Source: an uncultured Bacilli bacterium (lineage in GTDB: Bacteria; Bacillota_I; Bacilli_A; RF39; UBA660). Taken from it: a stretch of 64,000 nucleotides of DNA. The notes beneath the pieces are model-generated. The model worked only from the letters and a program-made list of their open reading frames with translations, searched no databases and was not told the origin of the DNA. The position numbers and the translations under genes are program-made. Shown in pieces: positions 1 through 42,632 of the stretch (its first letter is position 1; each line of letters starts with the position of its first letter). The stretch lies in the NCBI GenBank assembly GCA_934130175.1, contig CAKOXP010000008.1:181-64180 (forward strand), in the 5' to 3' direction.

Positions 1-897
1 TAAGTTTATATCCATATTTTTATTAAGCATTGCTTTAGCAATATTTTGTTTTTCAGCTAGGCTTCCTTGCTCTAACCCTTGTTCCAACCCTTGTTCCAAC
101 CCTTGTTCTAGACCTTGTTCTAAACCTTGAGCCATTCCTTGTTCTATTCCTTTTTCCAATCCTTCAGCTAATCCTTCGGCTAACCCTTTTTCAATTGCTT
201 CTCTTCTTAAGGAATTTTCTATTTTTCGGTTATCCTCTTCTGCACTCATAAATTCTCTAAAATCTGGATCTTGATTTACTTCTTCTAATGTTTTCATATA
301 CTTATCAACACTCCTATCCTGAGATAGTTCTTCTAAAGTTTTTAATTCTTCTTGATTTAAATCTAACATTATTAAGTATTTATATTTCTCTATCTCATTT
401 CTAGACTTAGAATACCATATATCTTTTATCTTATCCATATTTATATCATATATTATTAAATTTTTGATATACTCATTTCCTTCTTCATCTCTTACTTTAT
501 AAATCCTTACTAACTCTTCTATACTTAAAGAATAACTTAAGTTAATTTGAATTACTAAAGTATCTTCATTATATTCATCTCCTTTCTTTACTTCATGGGA
601 ATATGTATCAAAGATGAATGAGGCATTTCTCGGATGAAGATAATTCGGTTTTTCTGCGTTTACTTCTACTTGAATTTTTCCTATATTGGTTTGTAAAAAT
701 AAATCAAAATGTTTTCTTCTAACATGAATGTTATCAACATTTCTTTCTAGATTTAAAAACTTAATATCTTCTATCTTTACATCTAGAATTGATTCTAATA
801 ATTTAGTTAGAATATCTTTACTTTCCTCTTTCATGAACACCTCCTTAAAGGCTCGATCATTTCTACAGGTATAAAATTTACTGACTGTTTCAGACAT
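1..897 (-). CDS. Rpn/YhgA-family PD-(D/E)XK recombination-promoting nuclease / putative transposase (3' end runs off the window)
   Basis: Absent from the ORF track because it is open at the window edge. Manual translation from ATG 897 (SD AAAGGA 9 nt upstream) gives MSETVSKFYTCRNDRAFKEVFMKEESKDILTKLLESIL... It shows the NDxxFKxxF N-terminus, an FDLFLQ...VEVNAE nuclease-like core and C-terminal (G-L-E-Q)n repeats followed by IAKAMLNKNMD, as in this family. Confidence 0.6.
   Translation of the reverse strand, partial: MSETVSKFYTCRNDRAFKEVFMKEESKDILTKLLESILDVKIEDIKFLNLERNVDNIHVRRKHFDLFLQTNIGKIQVEVNAEKPNYLHPRNASFIFDTYSHEVKKGDEYNEDTLVIQINLSYSLSIEELVRIYKVRDEEGNEYIKNLIIYDINMDKIKDIWYSKSRNEIEKYKYLIMLDLNQEELKTLEELSQDRSVDKYMKTLEEVNQDPDFREFMSAEEDNRKIENSLRREAIEKGLAEGLAEGLEKGIEQGMAQGLEQGLEQGLEQGLEQGLEQGSLAEKQNIAKAMLNKNMDINL
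64..183 (-). repeat. About 10 tandem 12-nt units (ccttgttcNaaN) encoding the (E/A)(Q/E)GL repeat of the Rpn-like protein
   Basis: The period-12 repeat is directly visible: ccttgttccaac ccttgttccaac ccttgttctaga ccttgttctaaa ... Confidence 0.8.
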
Positions 898-933
898 TTT
901 ATCACATCCTTTCTCTTATCTAAAACAAAAAAT

Positions 934-956
934 AGAAGGAAAGCATTTTTCCTTCT
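934..956 (-). terminator. Intrinsic terminator after the phosphohexomutase gene
   Basis: Minus strand reads GAAGGAAA-aatgc-TTTCCTTC followed by tattttttg. Confidence 0.6.
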
Positions 957-996
957 ATAATATTATTGTCTGTTAATTGGATTTTTCCTTAATTTT

Positions 997-2370
997 TTAC
1001 TTATTTAGTTCATTGATTAAATCAGTAAATTCTTTTTGTATACTTTCTAGTCTTTCTTCACTACTAGCTTCAAATCTGGCAGTTAAGTTAGGACCAGTAT
1101 TACTTGCTCTCACAAGAGCCCATCCATCATCAAATAAAACTTTGATTCCATCTATATCTAAGAATTTATATCCTTTTTCTTTAGCATATTCACCTACTTT
1201 AGAAACAATTTCAAACTTAACATCATCATTTGATGCAAATTTCAATTCCTCAGTTGAATAATATTCATTAATACCTGAAAGTAGTTCTTCAACATTTTTA
1301 TCAGTATGAGATAAAATTTCTAACATTCTAAGTCCTGCATACAAACCACTATCAAAACCTAACCATCTATCTCTAAAGTAAACATGTCCTGATAGCTCTC
1401 CACCAAATGGCAAATCATTATCTCTTACAGCAGCTTTAGTATAAGAGTTTCCAGTACGATAAGTAATACACTTTCCACCTAGTTTTTCTACTTCATCACT
1501 AAATGATTTAGAGCACTTTACATCACATAAGAATTCCTTTTTAGAAACTTTATTAATAATATCTCTAACTACTATAATCATATACTTATCAGTTGGAATA
1601 AACTTAGCAGTATTTGAAACCATTCCCATTCTATCACCATCACCATCAAAAGAAAGTCCAATATCGGCGTTCTCTTCTAGTACCTTTTTCTTTAATTGTT
1701 CAAGATTTTCTTCAACACAAGGGTCTGGATGATGATTTGGAAAAGATCCATCACTTACATCATTTATACAAACAATATCTATAGGAAACATACTGTATAA
1801 CTTTTTCATTATAATACTAGTAGTTCCATTTCCTGGATCCAAAACTACTTTAACACGTCTAGAACCAAAATGTAGGTTTTCTCTAAATAAAGTTAAATAC
1901 TCATCAGTTATATCATAATCTTCGATGGTTCCCTCTCCACTAGAAAATTCTTTCTTTAAGATGTAAGCTAAAAAGTCTTGAATTTCTTGTCCTTTACAAT
2001 TACCACTTTCATCAAAAGCAAACTTAAAGCCATTATCATCTTTAGGATTATGACTAGCCGTAACCATTACTCCACTATATACTTTAAGTTTTAAGCAAGC
2101 ATAATAATACATTGGTGTTGTACATAAACCTAAACTAATAATATCAATACCAGTCTCAGTAATACCTTTCATTAAAGCAGTATATAAATCATTACTTGAT
2201 AATCTATTATCGTGTCCAACTACACAAGTAGTCTTGCCAATACTTTTTATATAACTACCAAACCCAAGCCCAACAGTATAGGCTGTATCAACATCAAGTT
2301 CAGTAGGATAAATTCCTCTAATATCATACCCTCTAAATATATTTTTATTTATGTTTTCCTTTATCTTCAT
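997..2370 (-). CDS. Alpha-D-phosphohexomutase (phosphomannomutase/phosphoglucomutase type)
   Basis: 457 aa. Active-site loop GVMVTASHNPKDDNGFKF, metal loop FDGDGDR, sugar loop GGELSGH. Confidence 0.85.
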   Translation of the reverse strand: MKIKENINKNIFRGYDIRGIYPTELDVDTAYTVGLGFGSYIKSIGKTTCVVGHDNRLSSNDLYTALMKGITETGIDIISLGLCTTPMYYYACLKLKVYSGVMVTASHNPKDDNGFKFAFDESGNCKGQEIQDFLAYILKKEFSSGEGTIEDYDITDEYLTLFRENLHFGSRRVKVVLDPGNGTTSIIMKKLYSMFPIDIVCINDVSDGSFPNHHPDPCVEENLEQLKKKVLEENADIGLSFDGDGDRMGMVSNTAKFIPTDKYMIIVVRDIINKVSKKEFLCDVKCSKSFSDEVEKLGGKCITYRTGNSYTKAAVRDNDLPFGGELSGHVYFRDRWLGFDSGLYAGLRMLEILSHTDKNVEELLSGINEYYSTEELKFASNDDVKFEIVSKVGEYAKEKGYKFLDIDGIKVLFDDGWALVRASNTGPNLTARFEASSEERLESIQKEFTDLINELNK

Positions 2371-2389
2371 TTTATCATTCCTCTCTTAA

Positions 2390-3421
2390 TTAATACGAAA
2401 TATTTGTTTTTGCAACTTCTATAACTGGACGAACACCTCTTTTGCCATAAAATAGCTCACCAGTTTCATCAGAGTTCCCATCTCCTGTTGAATCAACGTA
2501 GAAAGCATAAATTCCACGAAATTCAGTAAAGAGTAACATAGCCATGTTTGTTTTATACATATCTAGTTTAGAAGAATGTGCATTTTCTAACCAATATCCA
2601 TATGCATCATTTTTATTGTTTGAACTATATTGAGTACTTTCCATATAATAACTATATTGTTTTAAAATACCTTTTTGAAATGTACCATAATTTGAAATTG
2701 ATTTTTTTAAATCTTCAATAGCTAATAATCTTGCAGCATACCCATTATAAGAAAAAGTTGTTGGTAACGTTCCAGATGATGCTATATTAGTACCAATTTC
2801 ATTTGTTATCGTTCGAGATATATTTTTTAAATTCACATTCTTCCATTGCTCTACAGTTGGTAATTGTTTAATAGCCGTTACTGGTCCATTATTATTACTA
2901 CTACTTTCATCATAAGCAATTCCTACTGTACTTGTAGGATTTGCACCATCTACGTTACTATAATAAATCAACATTGCAGTATCATCATCTAAATCTCCTA
3001 GATAGTAAAATCTCTCTGTTGCTTCATTATATACTCCATCTCCATTTACATCACAGTCAAATGCATCTCCATTTGTTAATGTTCCCTTTGTTCCAAGACT
3101 TCCATAGGTTATAGCATCACCAAGTGAATAACCATCTGCTAAACAATAACCAGAGGTATCAGTATTTTCACATTTTTCTGTATGAAGACTTGTCGCACGC
3201 TTACACAATACTGGTTTACAATAAGAACCTTTTGGACATTCTTTTTTAGCTTCTTCTATCTTCTTTGTTGCTTTAGTACTTATTTTATCTAAAGCATCTT
3301 GAACATTTGTTGCCCCTAAATTGTCCGTATCTACATAATTTATACTTGTTGCCTGTATAATTGTCGATGCATATACACTAGTTCCGAGTAGTAGTAAACT
3401 AACTACCCCCCCCCAGTACAA
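2390..3421 (-). CDS. Secreted protein with an NVQDALD N-module and a Cys-rich/GVRPVIEV C-module; native 5' end (ATG 3464) is out of frame at a G9 tract
   Basis: The track ORF starts at a TTG. Upstream, SD GGAAGGTG-5nt-ATG(3464) opens MKIIKLIMKNNNYKFVLGGGS*, which stops at 3399-3401. G8 or G11 would fuse it to ...VVSLLLLGTSVYASTIIQ (a good signal peptide). The C-terminal 270 aa are paralogous to 53749..55143 and 58197..59591. Confidence 0.75.
   Translation of the reverse strand: MYWGGVVSLLLLGTSVYASTIIQATSINYVDTDNLGATNVQDALDKISTKATKKIEEAKKECPKGSYCKPVLCKRATSLHTEKCENTDTSGYCLADGYSLGDAITYGSLGTKGTLTNGDAFDCDVNGDGVYNEATERFYYLGDLDDDTAMLIYYSNVDGANPTSTVGIAYDESSSNNNGPVTAIKQLPTVEQWKNVNLKNISRTITNEIGTNIASSGTLPTTFSYNGYAARLLAIEDLKKSISNYGTFQKGILKQYSYYMESTQYSSNNKNDAYGYWLENAHSSKLDMYKTNMAMLLFTEFRGIYAFYVDSTGDGNSDETGELFYGKRGVRPVIEVAKTNISY
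3406..3414 (-). repeat. Homopolymeric G9 (C9 on the plus strand) in the 5' coding region
   Basis: Counted base by base. It is one of only two 9-nt G/C runs noticed in this AT-rich window. Confidence 0.95.
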
Positions 3422-3605
3422 ATTTGTAATTATTATTTTTCATTATCAACTTTATTATTTTCATCTTTTCACCTTCCATTATAATTAAAGTATACTTTAT
3501 TTTTTAATTCATTTCAATTGATTTTCACTAAATTTACAACTTAACTTCACTCTATCTTCACAAAAAATGAATAGACTTATTATGTACAGAAAGGAGATAT
3601 ATAAA

Positions 3606-5093
3606 ATGTACTTATTTAAAAATGCTTTTAAAAATATTACAAGAAGTAAGGGAAAAAATATTTTGATTGGAATTATTATTACTGTAGTAACAACATGTAC
3701 TTGTATTTCACTAGCAATAAATAAAGCTGCTTCTAACTTAGTTAATAGTTATAAAACAAAGAATCCATTAGAAGTTAGTTTCAATCTAGATATGTCAAAT
3801 TTAAGAAGCGCAACTGATAGTGAAAAAGAAAATTTTCAGTCACTAACGGTTGATAATATCAAATCCTATGGTGATAGTAATCTTGTAAAGGATTATTACT
3901 ATACCTTAGAGACAAGCATAAATAGTAATGATGTTACAGCTATTGAAGGTAATAAAAAACCAAATGCAGATAATGACAATAACAATGAAATGAAAGATGA
4001 TAATCATAAAAAATTTGATAACTCAAATATGGGTAATTTTAGATTAACAGCTTATTCTAACTTTGCTTACTTAGATGATTTTACAACTGGTAATAAAAAA
4101 ATCATTGAAGGTAAAATGATTACTGGTGATAGTGATAGTAGTGAAATAGTTATTTCTAAAGACTTAAAAGATGAAAATAATTTAGAACTTAATCAAGAAA
4201 TAACCTTTACAAATCCAAGTGATGATGAAAAAAGTTATACTTTTAAAATTGTAGGAATTTATGAAAATGAAGCTAGTTCTTCCACATCTAATTTCATGGA
4301 TATGAATGTTTTAAATAGTGCTAACCAAATATATGCCAATCTAAATAGTGTTCAAAAAGTTTTAGATGATAATAGTAGTAATGATGAAAATAAGCTTGTA
4401 AGAAATAATGGTTTAACTGCTAAATTCTATCTAAATAAAAATAGCGATTTAAAAGAGTTTGAAAAAGAAGTTAGAAAAAAAGGATTAAGCAGTTATTATG
4501 AAGTTAGTACCAATGAAAATGAAATTTTAGAAACATTAAAACCTATTCAAAATATCTCAACATTCTCAATTAATTTCTTAATAGTTATCATAATTATTGG
4601 TATCGTAGTTTTAACTATTATTAATTTCTTAAATATTAGAGATAGAAAATATGAAATTGGTGTATTACGTGCTATTGGAATGAGTAAATTTAAAGTTACA
4701 CTCCAATTAGTATTAGAAACTTTCTTTGTAGCTTTCGCATCACTAATTATTGGTACTGCAGTTGGAATAATTTCTAGTCAACCTGTTACTAACTACATGC
4801 TTAAAAATGAAATAAACTCTTATAAAGAGGAAGTTGAAAATACTACTAATAATTTTAAAGATAATAATTTCCAGAGACCTAGCGAAAGTATGAAAGATGA
4901 TAATATAAAAAAAGGAAAACCTGGAGTTAATAGAAATATAGATTATGTAGATAGTTTGAAGGTTCATATTGATATCTTAACTATTATAGAATTATTTGGT
5001 GTATGTATCTTGTTAACTGCTACTAGTGTTATCACAGTATCCTTAATTATAAATAAATATAGTCCAAATAAAATACTACAAAATAGATTATAG
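3606..5093 (+). CDS. ABC transporter permease, MacB/FtsX type (1 TM, large extracytoplasmic domain, 3 TM)
   Basis: The track ORF starts at 3567, but AGGAG lies 9 nt before ATG 3606 (MYLFKNAFKNITRSKGKNILIGIII). FtsX-type C-terminal TM triplet, adjacent to an ATPase gene. Confidence 0.8.
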   Translation: MYLFKNAFKNITRSKGKNILIGIIITVVTTCTCISLAINKAASNLVNSYKTKNPLEVSFNLDMSNLRSATDSEKENFQSLTVDNIKSYGDSNLVKDYYYTLETSINSNDVTAIEGNKKPNADNDNNNEMKDDNHKKFDNSNMGNFRLTAYSNFAYLDDFTTGNKKIIEGKMITGDSDSSEIVISKDLKDENNLELNQEITFTNPSDDEKSYTFKIVGIYENEASSSTSNFMDMNVLNSANQIYANLNSVQKVLDDNSSNDENKLVRNNGLTAKFYLNKNSDLKEFEKEVRKKGLSSYYEVSTNENEILETLKPIQNISTFSINFLIVIIIIGIVVLTIINFLNIRDRKYEIGVLRAIGMSKFKVTLQLVLETFFVAFASLIIGTAVGIISSQPVTNYMLKNEINSYKEEVENTTNNFKDNNFQRPSESMKDDNIKKGKPGVNRNIDYVDSLKVHIDILTIIELFGVCILLTATSVITVSLIINKYSPNKILQNRL

Positions 5094-5102
5094 GAGGTTA
5101 CA

Positions 5103-5759
5103 ATGAGTATATTAAAAATAGATAATTTAAGTTTTACATATGATAAAGAAAAATTTGTTTTAAAAGATATTAATATGGAATTTGATAAAGGAAAAGTATA
5201 TGGTATCTTTGGAAGAAGTGGAGCTGGTAAGAGTACTCTACTTTCCCTAATGGCTGGTTTAGAAACTTCTAAGTACGGGCATATTTATTATAAAGATAGT
5301 GATTTATTTAAGATGAATCTTGATAAATATAGATGTAATGAAATTGGAATTATTTTTCAAAGTTATAATCTTCTTCCCCAATTTAGCGCTATTGAAAATG
5401 TTATTTTATCAATGGATATTAGTAATATCAAAGGAAAAGATCGATATAAAAAAGCTCAAGAATTATTATTAAAAGTTGGTCTATCAGAAGATTTAATTAA
5501 TCGTCCTGTTTTACAATTATCTGGTGGTGAACAACAACGTGTTGCGATTGCTAGAGCACTATCCTATGAATCAGAAATAATTCTTGCTGATGAACCAACT
5601 GGTAATTTGGATCCTGAAATGGAAGAAGAAATCATTGATTTATTGGTTGAAATTGCTCATAAAGAAAATAAATGTGTAATTATAATTTCTCATTCAAAAG
5701 CTGTCAAAGAACATGTTGATGTTGCTTTTCAACTAGTCAGTGGCAAATTAAAAGTATGA
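5103..5759 (+). CDS. ABC transporter ATP-binding protein (MacB/LolD-like)
   Basis: Walker A GRSGAGKST, signature LSGGEQQRVAIARAL, Walker B ILADEPTGNLD. Confidence 0.95.
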   Translation: MSILKIDNLSFTYDKEKFVLKDINMEFDKGKVYGIFGRSGAGKSTLLSLMAGLETSKYGHIYYKDSDLFKMNLDKYRCNEIGIIFQSYNLLPQFSAIENVILSMDISNIKGKDRYKKAQELLLKVGLSEDLINRPVLQLSGGEQQRVAIARALSYESEIILADEPTGNLDPEMEEEIIDLLVEIAHKENKCVIIISHSKAVKEHVDVAFQLVSGKLKV

Positions 5760-10684: not shown

Positions 10685-13600
10685 CTAGTTAATAGGTTTT
10701 AATTCTTTATCTAAAATAGAATATAAATATAATTCTATTTTTTTATTGGTTCTTTTACTAATAGCTTCCTTATAACCTTCTAATTGTTTAGTATATGCAT
10801 CATCTAAAACATTCTTTAATTTATAATCAATTATTATAATAGTATCAGTATTTTCAATCATCAAATCAATAATTCCTGTCTTAAATTCATTATCTTTCTG
10901 ATAAATAAATTCGTATTCTTTATACATTTTAGAATTCAAATTATCTTTAATGATTTTTTGATTAAGGAAAGCTTCTACTAATTCTTTTTCTTTATTTGAA
11001 ATAACATCATAATCTGGATTATTAAAATCAATAAGTTCAAATATTTCATGAATTTTTGTACCTAACTTCATCTTGGAAATATCTTCAAGACTATTTAGAC
11101 TAACAACATTTTTAGAAAAGTGTTCTTCTTTTAAGACTTCTTTAGAAAAAGATTTTTCTAAAACTTTTAAATTATCTTCTACTAATAAACTATTATTATC
11201 AGAACCACTTTTATTAATAAGGTAATCTTTAGTACAATCTACTTCTATTTCCTTAATATATTCTTCAATATAATTATAAGTAAAATACATCATATCTTTA
11301 AATGAAGTCATCATATTCTTTTGATAATTGCTTGGATTTTCTATTAGTTTTTCACTATCAAACTCAGGCATAACTATTATCATTTTTTCTTTTGCTCTAG
11401 TAAGTGCAACATACAATAATCTAATTTTTTCTGATAATTCTTCTTCTTTTGTATCAAGTTTTAACAAAGTTTTATAAATAGTATCTTTCTGATAATTATT
11501 AAAATAAGGAATAATTAAACCATACTTGTTACTATAGAGTATTGAATCATTTAATTCCCTAAAACTAAATTTCTTAGTAAACCCAGCAAAGTAACAAACA
11601 GGATACTCTAAACCTTTTGATTTATGAATAGTCATAATTTTTACGGAGTTTGATTCTGAAGTATTAAGGGAAAATGTTTTTTTGGTATCGTTTTCAAAAA
11701 TATTTTCTAAGTAATCAACAAAATCAGATATAGTCATCCCATTAGATTCAAAATCATTAAGTAAATTGTAAAAATATTCTAATCTTACTCTTCCTACTTT
11801 GACATCAGTAAGTTTAAGTAAATTTTCTTCATAATTAAATATTTCAAGTAATTTTAAGAAAAATACTTTAGGTGAAGTCTCATAATAATAATTATATAAT
11901 TCTTCACATTTCTTATAAATAATTGTATCTTTATAATTACCAGTTTTTATTGTATGGAATAACTCTTCATCAGAAAGTTCAAATAAGAAACTTCTACCGA
12001 GGGATAAATAAGCATATTTAAAACTATTATCGAAAGATTCTTTATCAATAGCTTCTTCTAATTTTAAAATATTTTTAATAATTAAGATATCACTACTGCT
12101 TTTAATTTCTTCATCTTTATACAAGGTAAGAGGAATTCCTAAGTATTCAAATACTTTCTTATATAAATCAAAATCTCTAGTTCGATCAAGTAAAATTACA
12201 AAGTCACTATACTCTGCTTTTCTTAGGATTAAAGTATCTTTATCAAATATCAAATAATTATTTTCTATTTTTTCTTTGATATCTTTTCCTATCGCAAAGA
12301 TTTCTTTTTCTGTATCACTAAACTTGGTATCTTCTTTTTTATAAGTCAAGATTTCAAAATCATAATTTTGATTAGTTTTACCCTCTTCAATATAAGTGTT
12401 ATTACCAAATACCATTTGATGTGACTTTCTATAAGCAGCTCCCCCTAAATCATCAAACATTAAGTTATTGAATACTAGATTAATATTATCTAAAACTTCT
12501 TTTCTCGATCTAAAGTTTTTAAGTAAATCTATTTTTATACCACTATCTGTATTTGCATATAAATCATATTTATTTTTAAAGATATTAGGATTTGCATTTC
12601 TAAATCTATAGATAGATTGTTTAATATCTCCAACCATATAAACATTATTTTTACTTATTAAAGAAACAAAATATTCTTGGATATCGTTAGTATCTTGGTA
12701 CTCATCGACCATTATTTCATTAAATTTATTTGTCAACTCATCTCTAACACTAGAATTTTCTTCTACTATTTTTATAGCAAACCTACTAATATCATTGAAG
12801 GAATACATGTTGTTTTCCTGTTTTATTTTTGAAAAGCTATCATCAAATAAATTAAGTATTTCAATAATTAGTCTCATATTAGATTTAGTTGATAATATTT
12901 CTTCTCTTATTTGTTCTGTATTTTCGTAAACACATAAACTTTTAATATTAGTAACAATACTTGATATTTCTTTTTTTATATTTTTAGCCTCAGTATCAGC
13001 ATCTTTATCTATATTTGGTAATCTAAATTCAATGGATTTAACTACCTCATTATAGTTTCTTGCTTTAAGTAAAGGATTAATTACTTGATCAAGTTTTTCC
13101 ATATACTTCAAATCTAAATATAAGGATAAGCTTTTTATATCTTCTTCAATGTAAGATTTGTATTTTTCGATTACATCAAAATAAGAAGAAATGGCTTTAT
13201 CAATAAATTCATCATTGTAATATGTATCAAGGTAAGTGTTAAGATATTTTTTCTTATCTATCTTCATATCTAACTTATCACTAATCTTAATGAGTAATGC
13301 TTTTAATTGTTCATCATCCTTATAGCAAAAATCTTTAATAAAGTGTTTAAATTCCAAACTTCCATTAGAGTAATACTCATCAAAGATTTCATCCATCAAT
13401 TTTTTCTTATAGATATTAATTAAAGCATCATCACTAATTCCAACATTTCTATCTAGACCAAGTAAATAATGATATTTTTTAACAATACTTAGAGAAAAGC
13501 TATCAAATGTTGTTATATATGCTGAATCTATTAAATCAAGTTCTGATATCATATTTTCTTTTTTTAATTTTTTTCTAATACGATCTTTCATTTCTTTAGC

Positions 13601-13774
13601 AGCAGCATTAGTAAATGTCATAATTAATAATTCGTCAATATGAACTCCACTTTTAATTTTTCTCAATACTCTTTCGGTAAGAACGGCTGTCTTACCACTA
13701 CCTGCTCCTGCTGAAACGATAATATTATTATGGTCTAAGTTTATCGCATCAGTTTGTTCTTTTGTCCAAGCCAT
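10685..13774 (-). CDS. addA: ATP-dependent helicase/nuclease subunit A (UvrD-like helicase with C-terminal RecB-type nuclease)
   Basis: Walker A GAGSGKT, VDEYQDTN, C-terminal IIIDYKLK nuclease motif. addB lies nearby on the same strand. Confidence 0.85.
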   Translation of the reverse strand: MAWTKEQTDAINLDHNNIIVSAGAGSGKTAVLTERVLRKIKSGVHIDELLIMTFTNAAAKEMKDRIRKKLKKENMISELDLIDSAYITTFDSFSLSIVKKYHYLLGLDRNVGISDDALINIYKKKLMDEIFDEYYSNGSLEFKHFIKDFCYKDDEQLKALLIKISDKLDMKIDKKKYLNTYLDTYYNDEFIDKAISSYFDVIEKYKSYIEEDIKSLSLYLDLKYMEKLDQVINPLLKARNYNEVVKSIEFRLPNIDKDADTEAKNIKKEISSIVTNIKSLCVYENTEQIREEILSTKSNMRLIIEILNLFDDSFSKIKQENNMYSFNDISRFAIKIVEENSSVRDELTNKFNEIMVDEYQDTNDIQEYFVSLISKNNVYMVGDIKQSIYRFRNANPNIFKNKYDLYANTDSGIKIDLLKNFRSRKEVLDNINLVFNNLMFDDLGGAAYRKSHQMVFGNNTYIEEGKTNQNYDFEILTYKKEDTKFSDTEKEIFAIGKDIKEKIENNYLIFDKDTLILRKAEYSDFVILLDRTRDFDLYKKVFEYLGIPLTLYKDEEIKSSSDILIIKNILKLEEAIDKESFDNSFKYAYLSLGRSFLFELSDEELFHTIKTGNYKDTIIYKKCEELYNYYYETSPKVFFLKLLEIFNYEENLLKLTDVKVGRVRLEYFYNLLNDFESNGMTISDFVDYLENIFENDTKKTFSLNTSESNSVKIMTIHKSKGLEYPVCYFAGFTKKFSFRELNDSILYSNKYGLIIPYFNNYQKDTIYKTLLKLDTKEEELSEKIRLLYVALTRAKEKMIIVMPEFDSEKLIENPSNYQKNMMTSFKDMMYFTYNYIEEYIKEIEVDCTKDYLINKSGSDNNSLLVEDNLKVLEKSFSKEVLKEEHFSKNVVSLNSLEDISKMKLGTKIHEIFELIDFNNPDYDVISNKEKELVEAFLNQKIIKDNLNSKMYKEYEFIYQKDNEFKTGIIDLMIENTDTIIIIDYKLKNVLDDAYTKQLEGYKEAISKRTNKKIELYLYSILDKELKPIN

Positions 13775-13822
13775 ATCTTTTCACCCTCTTATCAAAAGTT
13801 AATCTTACATATATTTAATATA

Positions 13823-14413
13823 TCATAAAACAAATACTTTAAACAAACATTTAAGAAGATTATGTCTCTGATATCTATAAATAGTTACTACTATAAATAA
13901 TATAAAAATATATAGTAACACCGCAAATACCGGTAGTAAAAATTTTTTAATATTTTGATTTGCGATTTTCATTTTATATTCATCTAAAGAATATTTCTTC
14001 TTCCATCTGTTTAATTTTCCTTTTGCGCATTTTATATACAATTGATTAGCAAACATTACCCAAAATGTTTTTTCAATAATAATTGATAAAAAGAACAAGA
14101 AATCGGAAAAGTTAAAAAATCCCAAATTAATAAAACTACCAATATAAGTATTAAAATAAACAAATAATAAACTCAGTAATTCAAGGAAAAATCCAACAAA
14201 GAAACAATTTCTATAACAAAAATATAGTCCTCCAAGTAAAAATACTTTTAAATTATTAGTATTATGTATTATATCATCATACTCATACCCTAACATAATT
14301 TCTAAATCACTATTTTCACTCTTTGTTTTTTTGATATAGTTTCCATTTTTCATATACCCACAAACCATACAATAATCTTTAAAATTAGATTTTCCACATT
14401 TAGGACAATTCAT
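13823..14413 (-). CDS. Zinc-ribbon membrane protein (DUF2628-like)
   Basis: N-terminal CPKCG...CMVCG, then LLGGLYFCYRNCFF and several TM helices. Extended -10 (TGcTATAAT, minus strand, 14450..14458) upstream. Confidence 0.4.
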   Translation of the reverse strand: MNCPKCGKSNFKDYCMVCGYMKNGNYIKKTKSENSDLEIMLGYEYDDIIHNTNNLKVFLLGGLYFCYRNCFFVGFFLELLSLLFVYFNTYIGSFINLGFFNFSDFLFFLSIIIEKTFWVMFANQLYIKCAKGKLNRWKKKYSLDEYKMKIANQNIKKFLLPVFAVLLYIFILFIVVTIYRYQRHNLLKCLFKVFVL

Positions 14414-14487
14414 AAAAACACCAATCTTTCAATTCTTATTATCAAGCTAATTATAGCATAGTATTGTAAGATTTTTTCTAGTTTTTT

Positions 14488-14518
14488 CTTGTTTAATTTA
14501 TCGAACATGTGTTATATT
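14488..14518 (+). promoter_or_regulatory. Unit 1 promoter with overlapping LexA (Cheo-box-like) operator CGAACATGTGTTAT (14502..14515)
   Basis: TTGTTT -35, 17-18 nt spacer, TTATAT/TATATT -10. The 14-mer matches the Firmicute consensus CGAACATATGTTCG at 11 of 14 positions and overlaps the -10. Confidence 0.55.
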
Positions 14519-14583
14519 TAACTTGGAACATTTAGTTGTTGAGTGTCTACCTCTAATCTTTATAGAGAGGAGGTTATTGATAT

Positions 14584-14667
14584 ATGGGAAAGAAAGATTT
14601 TTTAATTACTATCTTACTCACTATTATCATATTATTAATAGCTCTACTCTTCATAACATTGAAGTAG
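14584..14667 (+). CDS. 27-aa hydrophobic peptide MGKKDFLITILLTIIILLIALLFITLK (type I toxin-like)
   Basis: SD AGAGGAGG 8-9 nt upstream. The ORF length is conserved in all three units despite 4 substitutions. Single TM flanked by Lys. Confidence 0.6.
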   Translation: MGKKDFLITILLTIIILLIALLFITLK

Positions 14668-14676
14668 TATCACCTA

Positions 14677-14766
14677 TAAATAAAAACGGCACTCATCTCT
14701 TTCAAAGATAAGTGCCTCTCAAACAAATTTGGGTAGACATTCTACTTGTCAAACTGAATGTTCCCC
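14677..14766 (-). ncRNA. Candidate antisense RNA, unit 1 (3' end defined by a minus-strand terminator at 14677..14716)
   Basis: Minus strand reads GGCACTTATCT-ttgaaag-AGATGAGTGCC followed by gtttttattta. A possible TAAAAT -10 lies at 14773..14778, so the 5' end is uncertain. Confidence 0.3.
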
Positions 14767-14836
14767 TTTTTTATTTTATGCAAGAATACTTGCTACATAC
14801 ATAATAACATATTCTTTTTATTTTTTCTAGTTTTTT

Positions 14837-14867
14837 CTTGTTTAATTTATCGAACATGTGTTATATT
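14837..14867 (+). promoter_or_regulatory. Unit 2 promoter with LexA-box-like operator (14851..14864)
   Basis: -35 TTGTTT at 14838..14843, -10 at 14861..14867, CGAACATGTGTTAT overlapping it. Confidence 0.55.
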
Positions 14868-14932
14868 TGACTTGGAACATTTAGTTGTTGAGTGTCTACC
14901 TCTAATCTTTATAGAGAGGAGGTCTTTGATAT

Positions 14933-15016
14933 ATGGGAAAGAAAGATTTTTTAATCTTTATCTTACTTATTATTATCATTTTACTTATAAGCCTACTCTT
15001 CATTATCTTGAAGTAG
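14933..15016 (+). CDS. 27-aa hydrophobic peptide MGKKDFLIFILLIIIILLISLLFIILK (type I toxin-like)
   Basis: SD AGAGGAGG. Nucleotide-identical ORF in unit 3. Confidence 0.6.
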   Translation: MGKKDFLIFILLIIIILLISLLFIILK

Positions 15017-15024
15017 TAAATCCT

Positions 15025-15116
15025 ATAAATAAAAATGACACTCATCCGCAAAGATAAGTGTCTATCAAACCAATTTAGGTAGACATTCAACTAAGCAAAA
15101 AAACTGAATGTTCCCT
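15025..15116 (-). ncRNA. Candidate antisense RNA, unit 2 (terminator 15025..15062)
   Basis: Minus strand reads GACACTTATC-tttgcg-GATGAGTGTC followed by atttttattta. It overlaps the 3' UTR and terminator of the peptide mRNA. Confidence 0.3.
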
Positions 15117-15187
15117 TTTTTTATTTTATGCAAGAATACTTGCTACATACATGATAACATACTCTTTCTATTTTTTCTAGTTTTTTT

Positions 15188-15218
15188 CTTGTTTATTTTA
15201 TCGAACATGTGTTATATT
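15188..15218 (+). promoter_or_regulatory. Unit 3 promoter with LexA-box-like operator (15202..15215)
   Basis: Same architecture as units 1 and 2. Confidence 0.55.
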
Positions 15219-15283
15219 TGACTTGGAACATTTAGTTGTTGAGTGTCTACCTCTAATCTAGAAAGAGAGGAGGTCTTTGATAT

Positions 15284-15367
15284 ATGGGAAAGAAAGATTT
15301 TTTAATCTTTATCTTACTTATTATTATCATTTTACTTATAAGCCTACTCTTCATTATCTTGAAGTAG
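15284..15367 (+). CDS. 27-aa hydrophobic peptide, identical to the unit 2 peptide
   Basis: SD AGAGGAGG; ATG 15284, TAG 15365-15367. Confidence 0.6.
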   Translation: MGKKDFLIFILLIIIILLISLLFIILK

Positions 15368-15375
15368 TAAATCCT

Positions 15376-15465
15376 ATAAATAAAAATGACACTCATCCGC
15401 AAAGATAAGTGTCAAATCCTAACATTTAGGTAGACATTCAACTTTGCAAAACTGAATGCTTTCCT
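15376..15465 (-). ncRNA. Candidate antisense RNA, unit 3 (terminator 15376..15413)
   Basis: Same hairpin and T-run as unit 2. Confidence 0.3.
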
Positions 15466-15545
15466 TTTTTTATTTTATGCAAGAATACTTGCTACATACA
15501 TAGTATCATAATATTAATTTTTTTTCAATATATGCTTTCTTAAGA

Positions 15546-17852
15546 TTAATCATCCAAGAAAGATAAATCGTTCTGTTTTTCTAAAGTAATAGTATCCTTA
15601 TTAGTCATAAAGCAAAGATCTTTATACTTACAATAACAACAAGATAAATTAGAGTTATCCATCACTTTGGGATCAATTCTAAAATCTGCATCCAAGATAT
15701 AATCAACTGCTTCATTAATTTTCTTATCCGTATAAGTTAAGATGTTATCAAATTCTTCATCATTAAGAACCTTTGCATAAGCAGAAAATGATGAATCCTT
15801 ATTTAATTTCATACTTTTGATAAGTTCACTCTTCTCATAAGTTTTATCAAAATCACTTAATACTTCTAAATCTGCTGTCGAATATCCTTGTAATTTTAAA
15901 TTTTCAAGTCTCATTTCTTCTAAAGTTTTTGAAGAAGAAAAGCTATTATTTGAATTTAAAACTTTTTGTAAATATATACCAGCAATTCTTGGATTTGTAA
16001 ATAATCCTGATTTATTAACTAAATATAAATATATAGGTAACTGCATACTTAAACCGTATTTTAAGTTATTAATATTTGTCGTAATACTTCCTGTTTTATA
16101 ATCAATTATACTAACTAGATTATTGTGATACATTATTTTATCTATTTTACCAGTTAAGATTGTATCTATTTGTTTATCTAATTTAACATTAACTTCTTTT
16201 TCATATAATTTATCTTTAAAATTTGTTAGTAAATCTTGATCCTTAATTATTCTAATATCTTCTTTTAAATCTTCTTTTAAATTGTCTAAGAAAAATCTTT
16301 CTTTTAAACTCAAGGTTTGTTTTTCTAAATAAGAATCCCATTCCCTATCTAAATTAAATAATGGATTATCCATAACTGAAAATATATAATGAAATAAATT
16401 ACCAATAACAGTTGAAAAATTCGATTTATATGGATCTATTTTCAAAATATACTTTATATAATATTGAAACTTACATAGATAAAAACTATTTAGTGAAGTA
16501 TAACTTACTTTTAGATATGAATTTAAGTATTCATAGAGTTCTTCTTTCTTAACATTCTTATATTTGTTGTCATATGTATTATATGGAATCACATAATGAC
16601 TATATAATTTCTTTAGATAATCATCTATTTCATTATATTTATAATAATTATCTAATTTTTCACCAAGTAATAACTTATTATATAAATTACTATTAGTAGT
16701 ATTCATTTTATAATCTATAACTTCTAGATTTAATTCATCTATTAAACTTGATTTTAGATATTCATTAAAACTACTTTTATCTTTGTATGATAAAATGCAA
16801 TTTTTTGTATTTGAAATTATACTAATAACACGTTCTTTTTCTTTCTTATTTTTTATATATGAAGGCATTAATCCAACAGTTAGTTTTAACTTATCGGACA
16901 AATAGTCCTCATCCTTATATATCTTAGGCAATACATCTTGATTTAAACTTACAATAAATAAATAGTTATCATCATCTACTATAGGAATATCAGAGACTAC
17001 ATTAATAGCATTATCATATCTAGTAGAGCTTAGTTTAGTACTTTTTAAAGTATCAACTAAAAATTCTTGATAATTAGGACTATCTTCAATATCTTTTAAA
17101 GAATTTATCACATCAACCAACTTTTTAACTATAGGATTAATAAATCCTGGTAATTCCTTTGTTTCTAAATATTTCTTAACAATACTAGTACCATATAAAT
17201 TTTGATTTAAATTAATATTAAGTGGAATATTATAATAAGAAAATAATTTATACATTAGAAAACTATATTCACTATCTACATTAGAAATAATTATCTTATT
17301 TAGTGGTACACCTTTATCTATTAAAGATAGGATATTTTCTATCACGAATATAATTTCCTCTTCTAAGCTACTACAATGATATACAGGAATATTTATATTC
17401 TTTGGTTTCAAGTTAACAATTTTATTATTTTTGAAAATTTCTTCTTCATAAGGTTCAAGCAAAAAATAATTATATATTAAAATATTCTTATTTTTTATAT
17501 AGTTTTTGAATAAGAAGTTAAATTCCAAATAGTTATTTTCTATTAAATCTTTCTTTATATTTTGAAGACTAATTAGCTTGGAATCATTATAATTCTTTTC
17601 TACATCTATAAAATATAAATTGTTTATGATTGTCTTTGCTGTTGAAATATTATAATGATATTTAGAAATTAAATAATCAAGTGTTTTATTCTCATATGAA
17701 AAAAAGTAAGATTTTCTAAACTCCTCTAAAGAGATAAATTTTATTGGTACTAGGCTATCTGAATACTTTTTTAAAATATATTTTTTTGTTTTGTTAGGAG
17801 TAATTAATATTGTATCTTCATTCATGTTAAGTTCTAAATCCATAAGTTTCAC
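15546..17852 (-). CDS. addB: Helicase-nuclease subunit B, compact form (768 aa)
   Basis: C-terminal RecB-type nuclease IIDYKTG plus an Fe-S cysteine pattern (an upstream Cys in FYLCKF, then C-x2-C-x5-C in SCCYCKYKDLC). No intact Walker A at the N-terminus. Confidence 0.8.
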   Translation of the reverse strand: MKLMDLELNMNEDTILITPNKTKKYILKKYSDSLVPIKFISLEEFRKSYFFSYENKTLDYLISKYHYNISTAKTIINNLYFIDVEKNYNDSKLISLQNIKKDLIENNYLEFNFLFKNYIKNKNILIYNYFLLEPYEEEIFKNNKIVNLKPKNINIPVYHCSSLEEEIIFVIENILSLIDKGVPLNKIIISNVDSEYSFLMYKLFSYYNIPLNINLNQNLYGTSIVKKYLETKELPGFINPIVKKLVDVINSLKDIEDSPNYQEFLVDTLKSTKLSSTRYDNAINVVSDIPIVDDDNYLFIVSLNQDVLPKIYKDEDYLSDKLKLTVGLMPSYIKNKKEKERVISIISNTKNCILSYKDKSSFNEYLKSSLIDELNLEVIDYKMNTTNSNLYNKLLLGEKLDNYYKYNEIDDYLKKLYSHYVIPYNTYDNKYKNVKKEELYEYLNSYLKVSYTSLNSFYLCKFQYYIKYILKIDPYKSNFSTVIGNLFHYIFSVMDNPLFNLDREWDSYLEKQTLSLKERFFLDNLKEDLKEDIRIIKDQDLLTNFKDKLYEKEVNVKLDKQIDTILTGKIDKIMYHNNLVSIIDYKTGSITTNINNLKYGLSMQLPIYLYLVNKSGLFTNPRIAGIYLQKVLNSNNSFSSSKTLEEMRLENLKLQGYSTADLEVLSDFDKTYEKSELIKSMKLNKDSSFSAYAKVLNDEEFDNILTYTDKKINEAVDYILDADFRIDPKVMDNSNLSCCYCKYKDLCFMTNKDTITLEKQNDLSFLDD

Positions 17853-26301: not shown

Positions 26302-26451
26302 TTATCTTGCTAATTTAATAGTAAGTGCTTGATTTGTATTTGTACTTGCATGATCTAGTTCAGTAACTCTATTAGATATTAATAAAGTTGATGCTATAGC
26401 CATCAAATATATAAATGTTACAAACATACCTTTCTTTACTATTTCCATCAT
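26302..26451 (-). CDS. 49-aa single-TM peptide divergent from lexA (candidate SOS-induced division inhibitor, SosA/YneA-like by position)
   Basis: Below the track size cutoff. SD GGAGAGG lies 6 nt before ATG 26451. Peptide: MMEIVKKGMFVTFIYLMAIASTLLISNRVTELDHASTNTNQALTIKLAR. Confidence 0.5.
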   Translation of the reverse strand: MMEIVKKGMFVTFIYLMAIASTLLISNRVTELDHASTNTNQALTIKLAR

Positions 26452-26481: not shown

Positions 26482-26510
26482 AGTATACATCATACACTTG
26501 TTCGTGTCAA
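26482..26510 (-). promoter_or_regulatory. Consensus promoter (TTGACA-17-TATACT) with a LexA-like box CGAACAAGTGTATG in the spacer
   Basis: Minus strand: -35 at 26505..26510, box at 26491..26504, -10 at 26482..26487. Confidence 0.6.
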
Positions 26511-26519
26511 TGATATTTT

Positions 26520-26559
26520 AAAACATTTGTTTGACAATTTACACTATTAATGTTAAACT
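26520..26559 (+). promoter_or_regulatory. lexA promoter (TTGACA-17-TAAACT) with the dyad AAAACATTTGTTTG overlapping the -35
   Basis: -35 at 26531..26536 and -10 at 26554..26559. The AAAC-N4-GTTT dyad at 26520..26533 is a degenerate Cheo box (10 of 14). Confidence 0.45.
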
Positions 26560-26580: not shown

Positions 26581-27198
26581 ATGGAAAAGTTAACTGAAAA
26601 ACAAGAATATATTTTACAGATTCTGAAACAATTAAAAGCTAAAAATGGTTATGCCCCTACTGTTAGAGAAATTGGTGCTGCTGCTAATTTACATTCACCA
26701 GCAACTATTCATTTTCATCTAAAAAAACTTGAAGAAAAAGGATTCATCAAAAAAGATACAAGTAAAAATAGAACTATTGAGATATTAGTTCCAAATGAAT
26801 TTGAAGAAACTAATGAAAATATTGTTGAGGTTCCATTACTTGGAAAAGTTACAGCTGGTACTCCAATAGAAGCCATAGAAACACCTGATGAATATTTTTC
26901 ATTACCGGCTAATTTGGTTACTAATAAAAAGGAAGTTTTCACCTTAAAAGTAAGTGGAGAATCCATGATTAATGTTGGAATCTATGATGGAGATATCTTA
27001 ATTGTAGAAAGACAAAATACTGCTAAAAATGGTGACACAGTAGTTGCTATGAATAAGGATAATGAAGCAACAGTTAAAACATTCTATAAAGAAAATGGAC
27101 ATTTTAGATTACAGCCTGAAAATGATACAATGGATCCTATCATTCTTGATCAAGTTACGATATTAGGTAAAGCTGTTGGATTATACAGAAAATTTTAA
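26581..27198 (+). CDS. lexA: LexA repressor (S24 autopeptidase)
   Basis: N-terminal wHTH (GYAPTVREIG), an AG cleavage site (VTAGTP), Ser in VSGESM and Lys in ATVKTF. Confidence 0.95.
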   Translation: MEKLTEKQEYILQILKQLKAKNGYAPTVREIGAAANLHSPATIHFHLKKLEEKGFIKKDTSKNRTIEILVPNEFEETNENIVEVPLLGKVTAGTPIEAIETPDEYFSLPANLVTNKKEVFTLKVSGESMINVGIYDGDILIVERQNTAKNGDTVVAMNKDNEATVKTFYKENGHFRLQPENDTMDPIILDQVTILGKAVGLYRKF

Positions 27199-41305: not shown

Positions 41306-42356
41306 TTAAATCTTTCTCCTTTCTATCAAATACTTTTTCTTCTCTTAAATCTGTATTATAGAAAACTCTACAGTCATTAATTCCATATTTTAACATTGCA
41401 AGTCGTTCTGATCCAAATCCGAAAGCAAAACCACTCCATTTTTCTGGATCATATCCACTAGATTTTAAAACATTTGGATGAACTACACCTGCTCCTGCTA
41501 CGGTAATCCAACCTGTATTTTTACAAATATTGCATCCTGCTCCATGACAGTTAAAACAACTAATATCCGCTTCTACAGATGGTTCAGTAAATTGATAATA
41601 ACTTGGATGAAGACGTGTTTCTGTTTCAGGTCCAAATAATTTTTTTACTAAAACATCAATTGTACCTTTCAAGTCTGATAAGGAAATATTTTTATCAACT
41701 AATAATCCTTCTATTTGCATAAATTGATGTGAATGAGTTGCATCATCATCATCTCTTCTATAAGTTTTTCCAGGACAAATTACACGAATTGGAACTTCTC
41801 CTTTTCCTTTTAACATTGTACGAACTTGAACTGGTGAGGTTTGACTTCTAAGTAAAACTTCTTCTCCTTCTATATAGAATGTATCTTGAGCATCTCTAGC
41901 TGGATGTCCCTTTGGAATATTTAACATTTCAAAGTTATATTTATCAAGTTCTATTTCAGGTCCATCCACTACATCATATCCCATAGACATAAAAACTTCT
42001 TCGACTTCTTCTACTAGTTTTTCTAAGATACTAGGAGCACCACTTGCTACTTTAGTAGCAGGAAGTGATATATCAATAGCTTCACTTGCTAATTTTTTAT
42101 TAAGAATCTCTTCTTCATAAGCATTCTTTCTATTTTCATAAAATTCTGTAAAAATACCTCTAACTTCATTAACACTTCCTCCAAACTCTTTTTTCTCTTC
42201 ATTTGGAATTTCCTTTATTAATTGATTGAGATTAGTTATAAGTCCTTTTTTACCTAAATACTTTACTTTTAACTCATTAAGTTCATCCATATTAGAAATA
42301 GTATCCATATCTTTTTCTAATAGTTTTTTAACTTCTTCTACTTGTTCATATTTCAT
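41298..42356 (-). CDS. pheS: Phenylalanine--tRNA ligase alpha subunit
   Basis: Class II motifs (GHPARD, FRRDDDDATHSHQFMQIEG, GFAFGFGSERL). Confidence 0.95.
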   Translation of the reverse strand: MKYEQVEEVKKLLEKDMDTISNMDELNELKVKYLGKKGLITNLNQLIKEIPNEEKKEFGGSVNEVRGIFTEFYENRKNAYEEEILNKKLASEAIDISLPATKVASGAPSILEKLVEEVEEVFMSMGYDVVDGPEIELDKYNFEMLNIPKGHPARDAQDTFYIEGEEVLLRSQTSPVQVRTMLKGKGEVPIRVICPGKTYRRDDDDATHSHQFMQIEGLLVDKNISLSDLKGTIDVLVKKLFGPETETRLHPSYYQFTEPSVEADISCFNCHGAGCNICKNTGWITVAGAGVVHPNVLKSSGYDPEKWSGFAFGFGSERLAMLKYGINDCRVFYNTDLREEKVFDRKEKDLND

Positions 42357-42591: not shown

Positions 42592-42632
42592 AGCTGTATT
42601 ATATCACAAAAAGTACAAATTTACTAGTGTTT

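Follow-up and report, generated by a model that had tools for sequence, protein, structure and literature searches.

A three-copy array of candidate type I toxin-antitoxin-like modules in an uncultured gut Bacilli genome

Three tandem units with predicted convergent transcripts

We analysed a stretch of 64,000 nucleotides (the window) of contig CAKOXP010000008.1 from an uncultured Bacilli bacterium. Positions 14456-15510 of the window hold three direct repeats, spaced by 349 and 351 bp, in which the same parts follow one another in identical order. Each of these units is predicted to give rise to two convergent RNAs, a plus-strand message for a hydrophobic peptide of 27 amino acids (aa) and a minus-strand antisense RNA. 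Taken with the relatives described below, the region probably contains three copies of a type I toxin-antitoxin-like module that represents a new family in uncultured, AT-rich gut Bacilli, a reading built on sequence comparison. An initial annotation, which had described three tandem units of ~350 bp with shared, ordered parts, proved accurate in its layout, as all of these parts were located where it had placed them. Read along the plus strand, a unit comprises a -35 element, a LexA-like 14-mer, an extended -10 element, GGAACA, a Shine-Dalgarno (SD) sequence, an open reading frame (ORF), a terminator hairpin that serves the minus strand, a plus-strand inverted repeat with a T-tract, a hairpin (GCAAGAATACTTGC) and a minus-strand promoter. 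Units 2 and 3 are 98% identical, and unit 1 shares 84% identity with unit 2 over 232 nt.

The predicted toxin promoter of unit 1 (14489-14518, plus strand) consists of the -35 hexamer TTGTTT (14489-14494), an 18-nt spacer and the TGn-extended -10 element TGTTATATT (14510-14518). Its counterparts have the same make-up and lie at 14838-14867 in unit 2 (-35 at 14838-14843, extended -10 at 14859-14867) and at 15189-15218 in unit 3 (15189-15194 and 15210-15218, respectively). GGAACA, which begins 6 nt past the -10 element in the units, was taken as the transcription start; across the family, the -10 element keeps a constant position 6-9 nt upstream of GGAAC. With the ends set by the positions of promoter and U-tract, the putative toxin mRNAs measure ~253 nt in unit 1 (14525-14777, from GGAACA to the end of the U-tract), ~254 nt in unit 2 (14874-15127) and ~252 nt in unit 3 (15225-15476), all on the plus strand.

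Within each message, a strong SD sequence, AGAGGAGG (14566-14573 in unit 1; 14915-14922 in unit 2; 15266-15273 in unit 3), lies 10 nt 5' of an ATG, and that of unit 1 pairs with an upstream ACCUCU in a conserved hairpin. The ORFs have exactly the 27 codons first noted and occupy 14584-14667 in unit 1 (MGKKDFLITILLTIIILLIALLFITLK), 14933-15016 in unit 2 (MGKKDFLIFILLIIIILLISLLFIILK) and 15284-15367 in unit 3, which encodes the same peptide as unit 2. About 19 hydrophobic residues stand in succession in each peptide. At the 3' end of the plus-strand transcript, a second inverted repeat is followed by T6-7ATTTT. This element had been annotated as a plus-strand terminator, and its U-tract is indeed present, but a terminator scan did not call it and its hairpin is not of the usual short-loop type; instead, a long-loop hairpin, or a helix between the 5' and 3' ends of the message, precedes the T6-7ATTTT.

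On the opposite strand, each unit appears to carry a gene for an antisense RNA complementary to the toxin mRNA. Terminator-like hairpins with a T-run on the minus strand only, which the initial annotation had also recognized, number three in the array, compared with 0.2 expected by shuffling. The predicted antisense RNAs span ~117 nt in unit 1 (14678-14794, with a 5' hairpin at 14780-14793, a central hairpin and a terminator stem at 14688-14716 followed by the T-run), ~118 nt in unit 2 (15027-15144; 5' hairpin 15130-15143, terminator stem 15037-15062) and ~117 nt in unit 3 (15377-15493; 5' hairpin 15479-15492, terminator stem 15388-15413). With its ends set by a TGn-extended promoter and the terminator, the minus-strand RNA is longer than the ~90 nt originally proposed. 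The promoters, all on the minus strand and all with TGn, read TAGAAA-17-TATTAT in unit 1 (14801-14829), TAGAAA-17-TATCAT in unit 2 (15151-15179) and TTGAAA-17-TACTAT in unit 3 (15500-15528), where the -35 hexamer falls in the unique flank outside the repeat.

The antisense gene is conserved well beyond the window. Of 45 distinct cassettes, 37 have a minus-strand promoter of the sigma-70 type with a score of at least 9 (maximum 13) at the same fixed place, and it often approaches the consensus (TTGACA-17-TGnTAAAAT). Downstream of it come GTATGTAG and a 5' hairpin with a covarying stem. An alignment of 29 antisense sequences supports a central hairpin of 8 bp and a terminator of 10 bp, with compensatory changes in 12 of the 18 pairs, and the fold of the unit 2 antisense RNA is more stable than that of shuffled sequences (z = -4.09). 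Over ~100 nt, the antisense RNA is a perfect complement of the toxin 3' untranslated region (UTR); it ends short of the ORF, its terminator lying directly 3' of the toxin stop codon, a few bases away. Some relatives encode 34-aa variants of the peptide that end in ..IKIAPSVLG (L025, 4043-4285; L083, 5450-5698; L095, 1080-1326). In these, the antisense terminator falls within the last codons of the ORF, so the C-terminal extension is encoded by the terminator stem.

A peptide family with a predicted mRNA lock

To date we count ~50 cassettes homologous to these units in ~35 AT-rich metagenome-assembled genomes of uncultured gut 'Bacilli', often in arrays of two to four. A scan of one genome per GTDB species with the pattern GGAGG-N6-12-ATGGGNAARAARGAYTTY, which required MGKKDF and an SD sequence, returned 88 stretches (labelled L). 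Of these, 43 carry a hydrophobic ORF of 22-34 codons, each on a contig rich in AT (24-33% G+C). With one exception, a Ruminococcus sp. (L072), their records come from the guts of humans, rabbits, deer, goats and chickens and bear the titles Bacilli, Tenericutes, Firmicutes CAG:822, Candidatus Onthousia, Erysipelotrichaceae or plain 'bacterium'. The remaining stretches are chance matches to the N-termini of ordinary proteins in unrelated taxa, mostly of higher G+C content.

A search of the same loci with nhmmer, using a nucleotide profile of the cassette, recovered more copies, the N-termini of which were not imposed by the pattern. These begin with MNKKDF.., MSKKDI.., MTKRENS.., MRTRTF.., MMKKRNF.. 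or MKKNLMIF.., and every one retains an intact hydrophobic ORF of 21-31 codons. Array size varies, with four units in L035, three in L023 and two each in L021, L049, L053, L070 and L094, and several genomes have two to four separate cassette loci. The species of the window is also represented in human-gut assemblies (Hadza and others), with arrays of two or three units, and many of its contigs end at the repeat. Beside MGKKDF-type units, two arrays contain a second peptide subtype (MMKKRNFVIKVLRYITIILFLLIIMIIVIKK and MRTRTFILKFLRLIAIILLLTTLLVLAIKK; L094, 3214-3494, minus strand; L070, 6942-7220, plus strand) that has basic residues at both ends and the same RNA framework.

The view that the peptide is translated, first put forward from the divergence of unit 1, gains considerable support from the family, which we traced at the DNA level only. 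The coding test used 29 distinct 27-codon ORFs and was confined to codons 7-27, because the search pattern had fixed codons 1-6. Entropy at codon positions 1, 2 and 3 was 0.87, 0.47 and 1.09, respectively, and dN/dS was about 0.31 over 264 pairs, indicating purifying selection; the +1 frame was interrupted by stops in 29 of 29 ORFs. Between units 1 and 2, the 14 nucleotide differences (dN 0.119, dS 0.57) change the four residues that had been reported as substituted. All homologous copies found, even the divergent ones, retain an unbroken ORF, so the search of related genomes for a broken ORF came up empty among these copies, and SD-like motifs of the GGAGG type precede it throughout the family. 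The peptide itself diversifies rapidly and stays hydrophobic. By these comparative measures, the ORF is a real coding sequence for a small (<60 aa) hydrophobic peptide of predicted membrane location.

The strongest structural feature of the units was absent from the initial annotation. Over its first 30 nt, the mRNA is predicted to pair with the stretch of ~40 nt that immediately precedes the U-tract, an arrangement that we refer to as a lock. In unit 1, the 5' element GGAACATTTAGTTGTTGAGTGTCTACCTCT (14525-14554) faces the 3' element GGTAGACATTCTAC ... CTGAATGTTCCCC (14732-14766), which is followed by the U-tract (14767-14777). The corresponding 5' element, 3' element and U-tract lie at 14874-14903, 15078-15115 and 15116-15127 in unit 2 and at 15225-15254, 15429-15464 and 15465-15476 in unit 3, all on the plus strand. 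The minimum free energy of the unit 2 mRNA is -74.2 kcal/mol, compared with -42.4 ± 4.5 kcal/mol for shuffled sequences (z = -7.06).

This pairing is maintained across the family. In 39 distinct cassettes, the duplex between the 5' UTR and the 3' UTR had a mean energy of -33.6 kcal/mol for cognate pairs, -25.1 kcal/mol for non-cognate pairs and about -18 kcal/mol for shuffled 3' partners, and divergent members of the family rank their own 3' partner first by duplex energy. Covariation was assessed in a joint alignment of 5' UTRs and antisense RNAs. Over the 27 columns of the lock core, standard pairs occupied 86% of cells, compared with 78% for non-cognate combinations, and 18 of the 27 columns showed changes on both sides; GGAACAU/AUGUUCC, for example, is replaced by GACACU/AGUGUC or GAGACA/UGUCUC. 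The SD hairpin covaries too, its anti-SD arm changing together with its partner (ACCUCU/AGAGGAGGU, CUUUUCUUU/AAAGAAAGG and CUUCA/UGAAG), and in 31 of 39 cassettes the pairing involves at least three of the five SD bases. Predicted pairing probabilities are 0.79 for the SD sequence and 0.95 for the AUG. In these models, the structure of the toxin mRNA would restrain its translation.

Homology also links the toxin 5' UTR with the central antisense hairpin, in which C or A stands where the 5' UTR has U or G. Because G-U wobbles in the intramolecular lock sit where the antisense RNA forms Watson-Crick pairs, the lock is predicted to be weaker than the antisense duplex. The sameness of 5' UTR and antisense sequence (14525-14554 compared with 15050-15115) is present in every unit and every relative. 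Binding of the antisense RNA leaves the predicted accessibility of the initiation region unchanged, SD pairing moving from 0.79 to 0.84 and AUG pairing from 0.95 to 0.95, and we therefore claim no translation-blocking role for it.

None of the databases searched contains a recognizable relative of the cassette. On either strand, Rfam gave no match at the gathering score, and the hits at E ≤ 10 were chance matches to small nucleolar RNA, microRNA and small RNA models far below their thresholds. As the initial annotation had surmised, the peptide belongs to no named toxin family: Pfam offers nothing at E ≤ 1 save a match of 0.28 to DUF6366, NCBIfam gives chance matches only (E 0.5-1.6), PADLOC has no match and a PDB profile search found nothing at E ≤ 10. 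A full-text literature search for the peptide string was likewise negative, and our literature search found no published type I system in uncultured gut Bacilli with reduced genomes. Gene callers miss ORFs of fewer than 30 codons, and whole lineages seem empty for that reason. We read the modules as belonging to the known, 3'-overlapping kind of type I toxin-antitoxin loci, within which they would form a new, previously undescribed family.

LexA-like boxes and alternative readings

The 14-mer in each toxin promoter had been compared with the LexA operator in the initial annotation, which also noted a lexA gene in the window. CGAACATGTGTTAT does match the Firmicute consensus CGAACATATGTTCG at 11 of 14 positions, overlaps the TGn-extended -10 element and is present exactly three times within the 64 kb, at 14502-14515 in unit 1, 14851-14864 in unit 2 and 15202-15215 in unit 3. 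The lexA gene, confirmed by a Pfam match, lies at 26581-27198 on the plus strand and encodes a 205-aa product. The canonical GAAC-N4-GTTY pattern is absent from all intergenic regions of the window, where its only two occurrences are intragenic chance matches. Because this Cheo-box pattern missed even the operators of lexA, we built a lineage-specific LexA matrix from 80 lexA loci (51-84% protein identity) that have two conserved operators 5' of lexA. The consensus of 95 operators is CGAACAATTGTTCG, and the lineage form of the motif is CGAAC-N4-GTTYG. This first matrix was filtered on the right half-site; a second, rebuilt from free left half-sites only, led to the same conclusion.

With the first matrix, the two lexA-region operators of the window rank first and second among ~64,000 positions. 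The higher-scoring one, operator 2 (AAAACATTTGTTTG, 26520-26533; 16.7 bits, and 16.3 bits with the free half-site matrix), overlaps the -35 element of the lexA promoter. Operator 1 (CATACACTTGTTCG, 26491-26504; 14.8 and 14.6 bits) is located between the two hexamers of a minus-strand TTGACA-17-TATACT promoter that belongs to a divergent 49-aa ORF. Both have one degenerate half-site (CATAC.. and AAAAC..), and the standard Cheo-box search misses these autoregulation sites because neither fits GAAC-N4-GTTY on both halves. The toxin box scores 6.7 bits with the first matrix (rank 13), compared with 10.5-21.6 bits for the operators used to build it, and 9.1 bits with the free half-site matrix (rank 7), of which 10.8 come from the left half and -1.7 from the right.

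Across the family, boxes of at least 8 bits occur in 12 of 41 toxin promoters; the corresponding figure for random 100-nt windows drawn from those loci is 0.9%. A matched control found such boxes in 10 of 41 toxin promoters and in a single antitoxin promoter region out of 44 (Fisher p = 0.003), and this lone box is the toxin promoter of the adjoining unit. The boxes take at least three positions, over the -10 element, inside the spacer and upstream of the -35 element. Good operators are present in several relatives, reaching 17.5 bits in L018 (AGAACAAATGTTTG) and 13-14 bits in L065, L070, L083 and L053; further examples of the boxes are AGAACAAATATTCG in L083 and CGAACATTTGTATT in L070, and the L040 type reads CGAACATTTGTTAT. 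LexA control is, on this distribution, a plausible trait of part of the family.

Whether the LexA of the window represses its own three toxin promoters, so that DNA damage would induce them as it does tisB and dinQ in E. coli, is a separate matter, and one on which the evidence divides. The left half-site, CGAACAT, is perfect and attains the maximum score. The box sits between the -35 and -10 elements and overlaps the extended -10, a typical position for repression, and both matrices place it among the best 13 of ~64,000 positions. The accepted lexA operators of the window likewise each have one weak half, operator 1 has CGAACAnGTGT in common with the toxin box, and the enrichment at toxin over antitoxin promoters, together with the good operators of relatives, speaks for LexA at the level of the family. 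Set against these points, the T at half-site position 2 of the right half has no counterpart among the 95 free half-sites, all of which show A or G there; the total falls well short of both lexA operators; scores similar to that of the first matrix arise within coding regions; and no intergenic region of the window contains the canonical motif. Moreover, the GTTAT of the box is explained by a TGnTATAAT-type -10 element, which is also found in family members that lack the CGAAC half, and the closest relatives differ within the box, G10 included, although their flanks are nearly identical (CGAACATGTATTAT, CGAACACGTGTTAT and TGAACATGTGTTAT). We consider LexA control of the three copies in the window, with their degenerate operator, possible but doubtful. 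The SOS-inducible membrane toxin array of the initial annotation is accordingly supported in its type I architecture, its convergent cis-antisense RNA and its tandem arrangement, and only partly in the SOS induction of these three copies.

Two alternatives concern the nature of the units themselves. The peptide could be a non-toxic small membrane protein, such as a transporter modulator or a stress-response factor, the synthesis of which is tuned by a cis-antisense RNA. Purifying selection on the ORF would suit such a protein, the peptide resembles no known toxin, and we infer its toxicity by analogy. Yet three layers of putative repression (the lock, the hairpin that holds the SD sequence, and a dedicated antisense gene with a strong promoter) bear on an ORF of 27 codons, the units are amplified in tandem and spread over several loci per genome, and the peptide changes quickly while keeping its hydrophobicity. 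Traits of this sort are hallmarks of type I toxins, whereas housekeeping small proteins are usually single-copy and have no dedicated antisense RNAs; we judge a non-toxic function improbable. Still further from the data is the notion that the units are non-coding repeats, either an array of small RNA genes or a structured intergenic repeat, with an incidental ORF. RNA structure is strong on both strands, and hydrophobic ORFs arise easily in AT-rich DNA, but an ORF that is intact in all homologous copies found, preceded by an SD sequence 10 nt before the ATG in the units and by SD-like motifs across the family, and marked by the codon-position entropy, the dN/dS value and the interrupted alternative frames described above, makes this reading very unlikely. 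Two other candidates were rejected: a leader peptide or attenuator, as each unit terminates and has no plus-strand gene downstream of it, and a bacteriocin precursor, as the wholly hydrophobic peptide has no leader or cleavage motif and no partner genes.

The type I architecture is supported by the conservation of the ORF, by covariation in both the lock and the antisense RNA, and by the conserved antisense promoter. Several considerations weigh against it. The toxicity of the peptide, the involvement of RNase III and all transcript ends are predicted, and the hosts are uncultured. The peptides have no polar or charged C-terminal tail of the kind that some known type I toxins need. The N-terminal conservation among the scan hits was imposed by the pattern that required it, leaving the nhmmer copies as those free of this bias, and the sequences of the family are related, so the counts of covarying cells exceed the number of independent events. 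Finally, no activating step is predicted, as the SD sequence and the AUG are paired in the full-length, antisense-bound and 3'-truncated folds alike.

Proposed mechanism and relation to known systems

For a type I module of this architecture, we propose the following course of events. Each unit would be transcribed into an mRNA of ~253 nt for a 27-residue membrane peptide with a single helix, from a promoter identified by comparison and with ends placed by prediction. This mRNA would lock itself through pairing of its first ~27 nt with the ~40 nt that lead up to the U-tract, with the SD sequence held in an anti-SD hairpin and the AUG paired; from these features, the full-length message is expected to be stable but poorly translated. 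The minus-strand sigma-70 promoter would supply an antisense RNA of ~117 nt, protected at its 5' end by a hairpin, with another hairpin in its centre and an intrinsic terminator. Its central hairpin is predicted to pair with the 3' lock element better than the 5' end of the mRNA does, so that the antisense RNA may displace that end, form a long duplex and expose the message to RNase III cleavage and decay, as SR4, SR5, SR6 and RatA do. Once toxin transcription exceeded the supply of antisense RNA, the peptide would be made, enter the membrane and, by analogy, stop growth. In the part of the family with a LexA operator at the toxin promoter, the SOS response would be the trigger.

A bolder scheme, which we offer as speculative, would make this the founding SOS-linked type I toxin family in Bacillota. 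An ancestral LexA-repressed toxin promoter, kept by many members, would be opposed by a constitutive antitoxin that mimics the 5' UTR, wins the 3' lock through Watson-Crick rather than G-U pairs and thereby opens the mRNA to RNase III; the arrays would act as recombination sites that reshuffle small genomes.

In function, the closest known systems are the 3'-overlapping ones of Bacillus subtilis, bsrG/SR4, bsrE/SR5, yonT/SR6 and txpA/RatA, the antitoxins of which bind toxin 3' ends and recruit RNase III (PMC5848175, PMC3531473). They too are Firmicute loci with sigma-A promoters, extended -10 elements and a small hydrophobic toxin ORF. As in the array, a convergent antitoxin with its own terminator is complementary only to the 3' end or 3' UTR of the toxin message (65-123 nt there, ~100 nt here), the SD sequence of the toxin mRNA is partly sequestered, and duplex formation, RNase III cleavage and decay are the expected outcome (PMC5848175, PMC3531473). 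Neither the peptide nor the RNAs, however, show sequence or profile similarity to those of the array, and the toxins there have 30-59 aa rather than 27. In the array, moreover, the 3' element to which the 5' end of the mRNA is locked is also the target of the antisense RNA, the antisense RNA copies 5' UTR sequence, and the loci are chromosomal tandem arrays with no prophage link.

End-to-end pairing of the mRNA, 5' to 3', is a feature of the hok and aapA1 systems. In hok/Sok of the E. coli plasmid R1 and aapA1/IsoA1 of Helicobacter pylori, as proposed here, the folded full-length mRNA is inert with a sequestered SD sequence, there are several chromosomal copies, and mRNA structure is conserved rather than sequence; for aapA1, the folding of the full-length message itself has been reported to block translation (PMC5416894). 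These systems differ in that their antisense RNAs pair with the 5' region of a 3'-processed, active mRNA, compared with the 3' UTR here, where the fold predictions give no evidence for 3' processing as an activating step. They also come from other phyla and encode unrelated peptides.

The E. coli systems tisB/istR-1 and dinQ/agrB fall into the same size class (29 aa for TisB, 27 aa for DinQ) and likewise encode peptides with a single transmembrane segment. Their logic, with LexA acting on the toxin promoter and a constitutive antitoxin, fits the distribution of boxes in the family, and the LexA-controlled type I systems named in reviews are those of E. coli only (PMC8309996, PMC11951105). Their antitoxins come from separate or divergent genes and act by pairing with the 5' UTR, and their LexA boxes are good, experimentally tested matches, unlike the degenerate box of the window. 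The par locus of the Enterococcus faecalis plasmid pAD1 (fst RNA I/RNA II) has convergent transcripts, a stabilizing helix between the 5' end and a 3'-proximal segment, and a hydrophobic peptide of 27-33 aa. This Firmicute system thus resembles the array in its convergent RNAs, and its end-proximal mRNA helix recalls the lock. In par, however, one bidirectional terminator serves both RNAs, and direct repeats allow RNA II to pair with the 5' translation initiation region as well; the array has separate terminators and an antisense RNA without complementarity to the initiation region. The Pfam Fst model gave no match to the peptide of the window.

These comparisons suggest that two known principles of control, a 5'-3' mRNA lock and a 3'-overlapping antisense RNA, are combined in one module. 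Because two RNA segments compete for a single target, strand displacement is directly testable, and the family, well delimited in peptide, locked mRNA and antisense RNA, offers ample natural variation from uncultured gut Bacilli with reduced genomes to guide mutational tests. If members with good operators are indeed under LexA control, they would represent an SOS-controlled type I toxin outside E. coli (compare PMC8309996, PMC11951105) and could link DNA damage, for example by fluoroquinolones, to dormancy mediated by a membrane toxin in common human gut commensals.

Genomic setting and neighbouring features

The array shows no link to a prophage or a plasmid. A pattern scan of IMG/VR and blastn searches of phage and plasmid records gave no match, and the neighbours of the array are the housekeeping genes addA, addB, polA and pyk. 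An addB-like gene (15546-17852, minus strand) flanks it on one side. On the other side, a 196-aa membrane ORF (13823-14413, minus strand) separates it from addA (10685-13774, minus strand), so that addA and addB, usually adjacent, are here split by the array and this ORF (10685-17852). The 196-aa protein, which has an N-terminal zinc ribbon (CPKCG...CxxCG) and several hydrophobic segments, belongs to no family in Pfam or PADLOC. It is kept together with the array and addA in a close relative (L049, stretch 1-5300; AddA 97% identical), where the place of addB beyond the array is taken by a CvpA-like membrane protein, an RNase HIII-like protein and DnaJ, names assigned by reading the translations only. 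In a contig of the same species as the window (L006, stretch 1-2500), this side of the array holds a helix-turn-helix regulator and an adenine glycosylase. Either the arrays mark breakpoints of rearrangement or assemblers join contigs across the repeat. We considered and rejected the idea of a mobile element, as the unit ends have no inverted or target repeats and there is no transposase. A further copy of ATTTTTTCTAG, the sequence that provides the minus-strand -35 hexamer TAGAAA of the unit 1 and unit 2 antisense promoters, opens the repeat upstream of unit 1 (14470-14481). No antisense gene follows this copy, which is probably a relic of a duplication boundary.

Cassettes linked to lexA were also sought, and nhmmer found none within 1.5 kb of the gene in 80 relatives. 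The 49-aa ORF that diverges from lexA in the window (MMEIVKKGMFVTFIYLMAIASTLLISNRVTELDHASTNTNQALTIKLAR, 26302-26451, minus strand) has a single predicted transmembrane segment, and the LexA operator CGAACAAGTGTATG fills the spacer of its promoter (promoter and operator, 26491-26510). A similar ORF of 44-62 aa, with a basic N-terminus and one transmembrane segment, lies upstream of lexA in 34 distinct relatives, and that of one distant relative includes a LysM-like GDTLWKIA. From these features, the 49-aa product looks like an SOS cell-division inhibitor of the YneA/SosA type. Elsewhere in the window, a T-box leader (42389-42593, minus strand; 113.9 bits, gathering score 93) lies directly 5' of pheS (41298-42356) and pheT (38933-41305).

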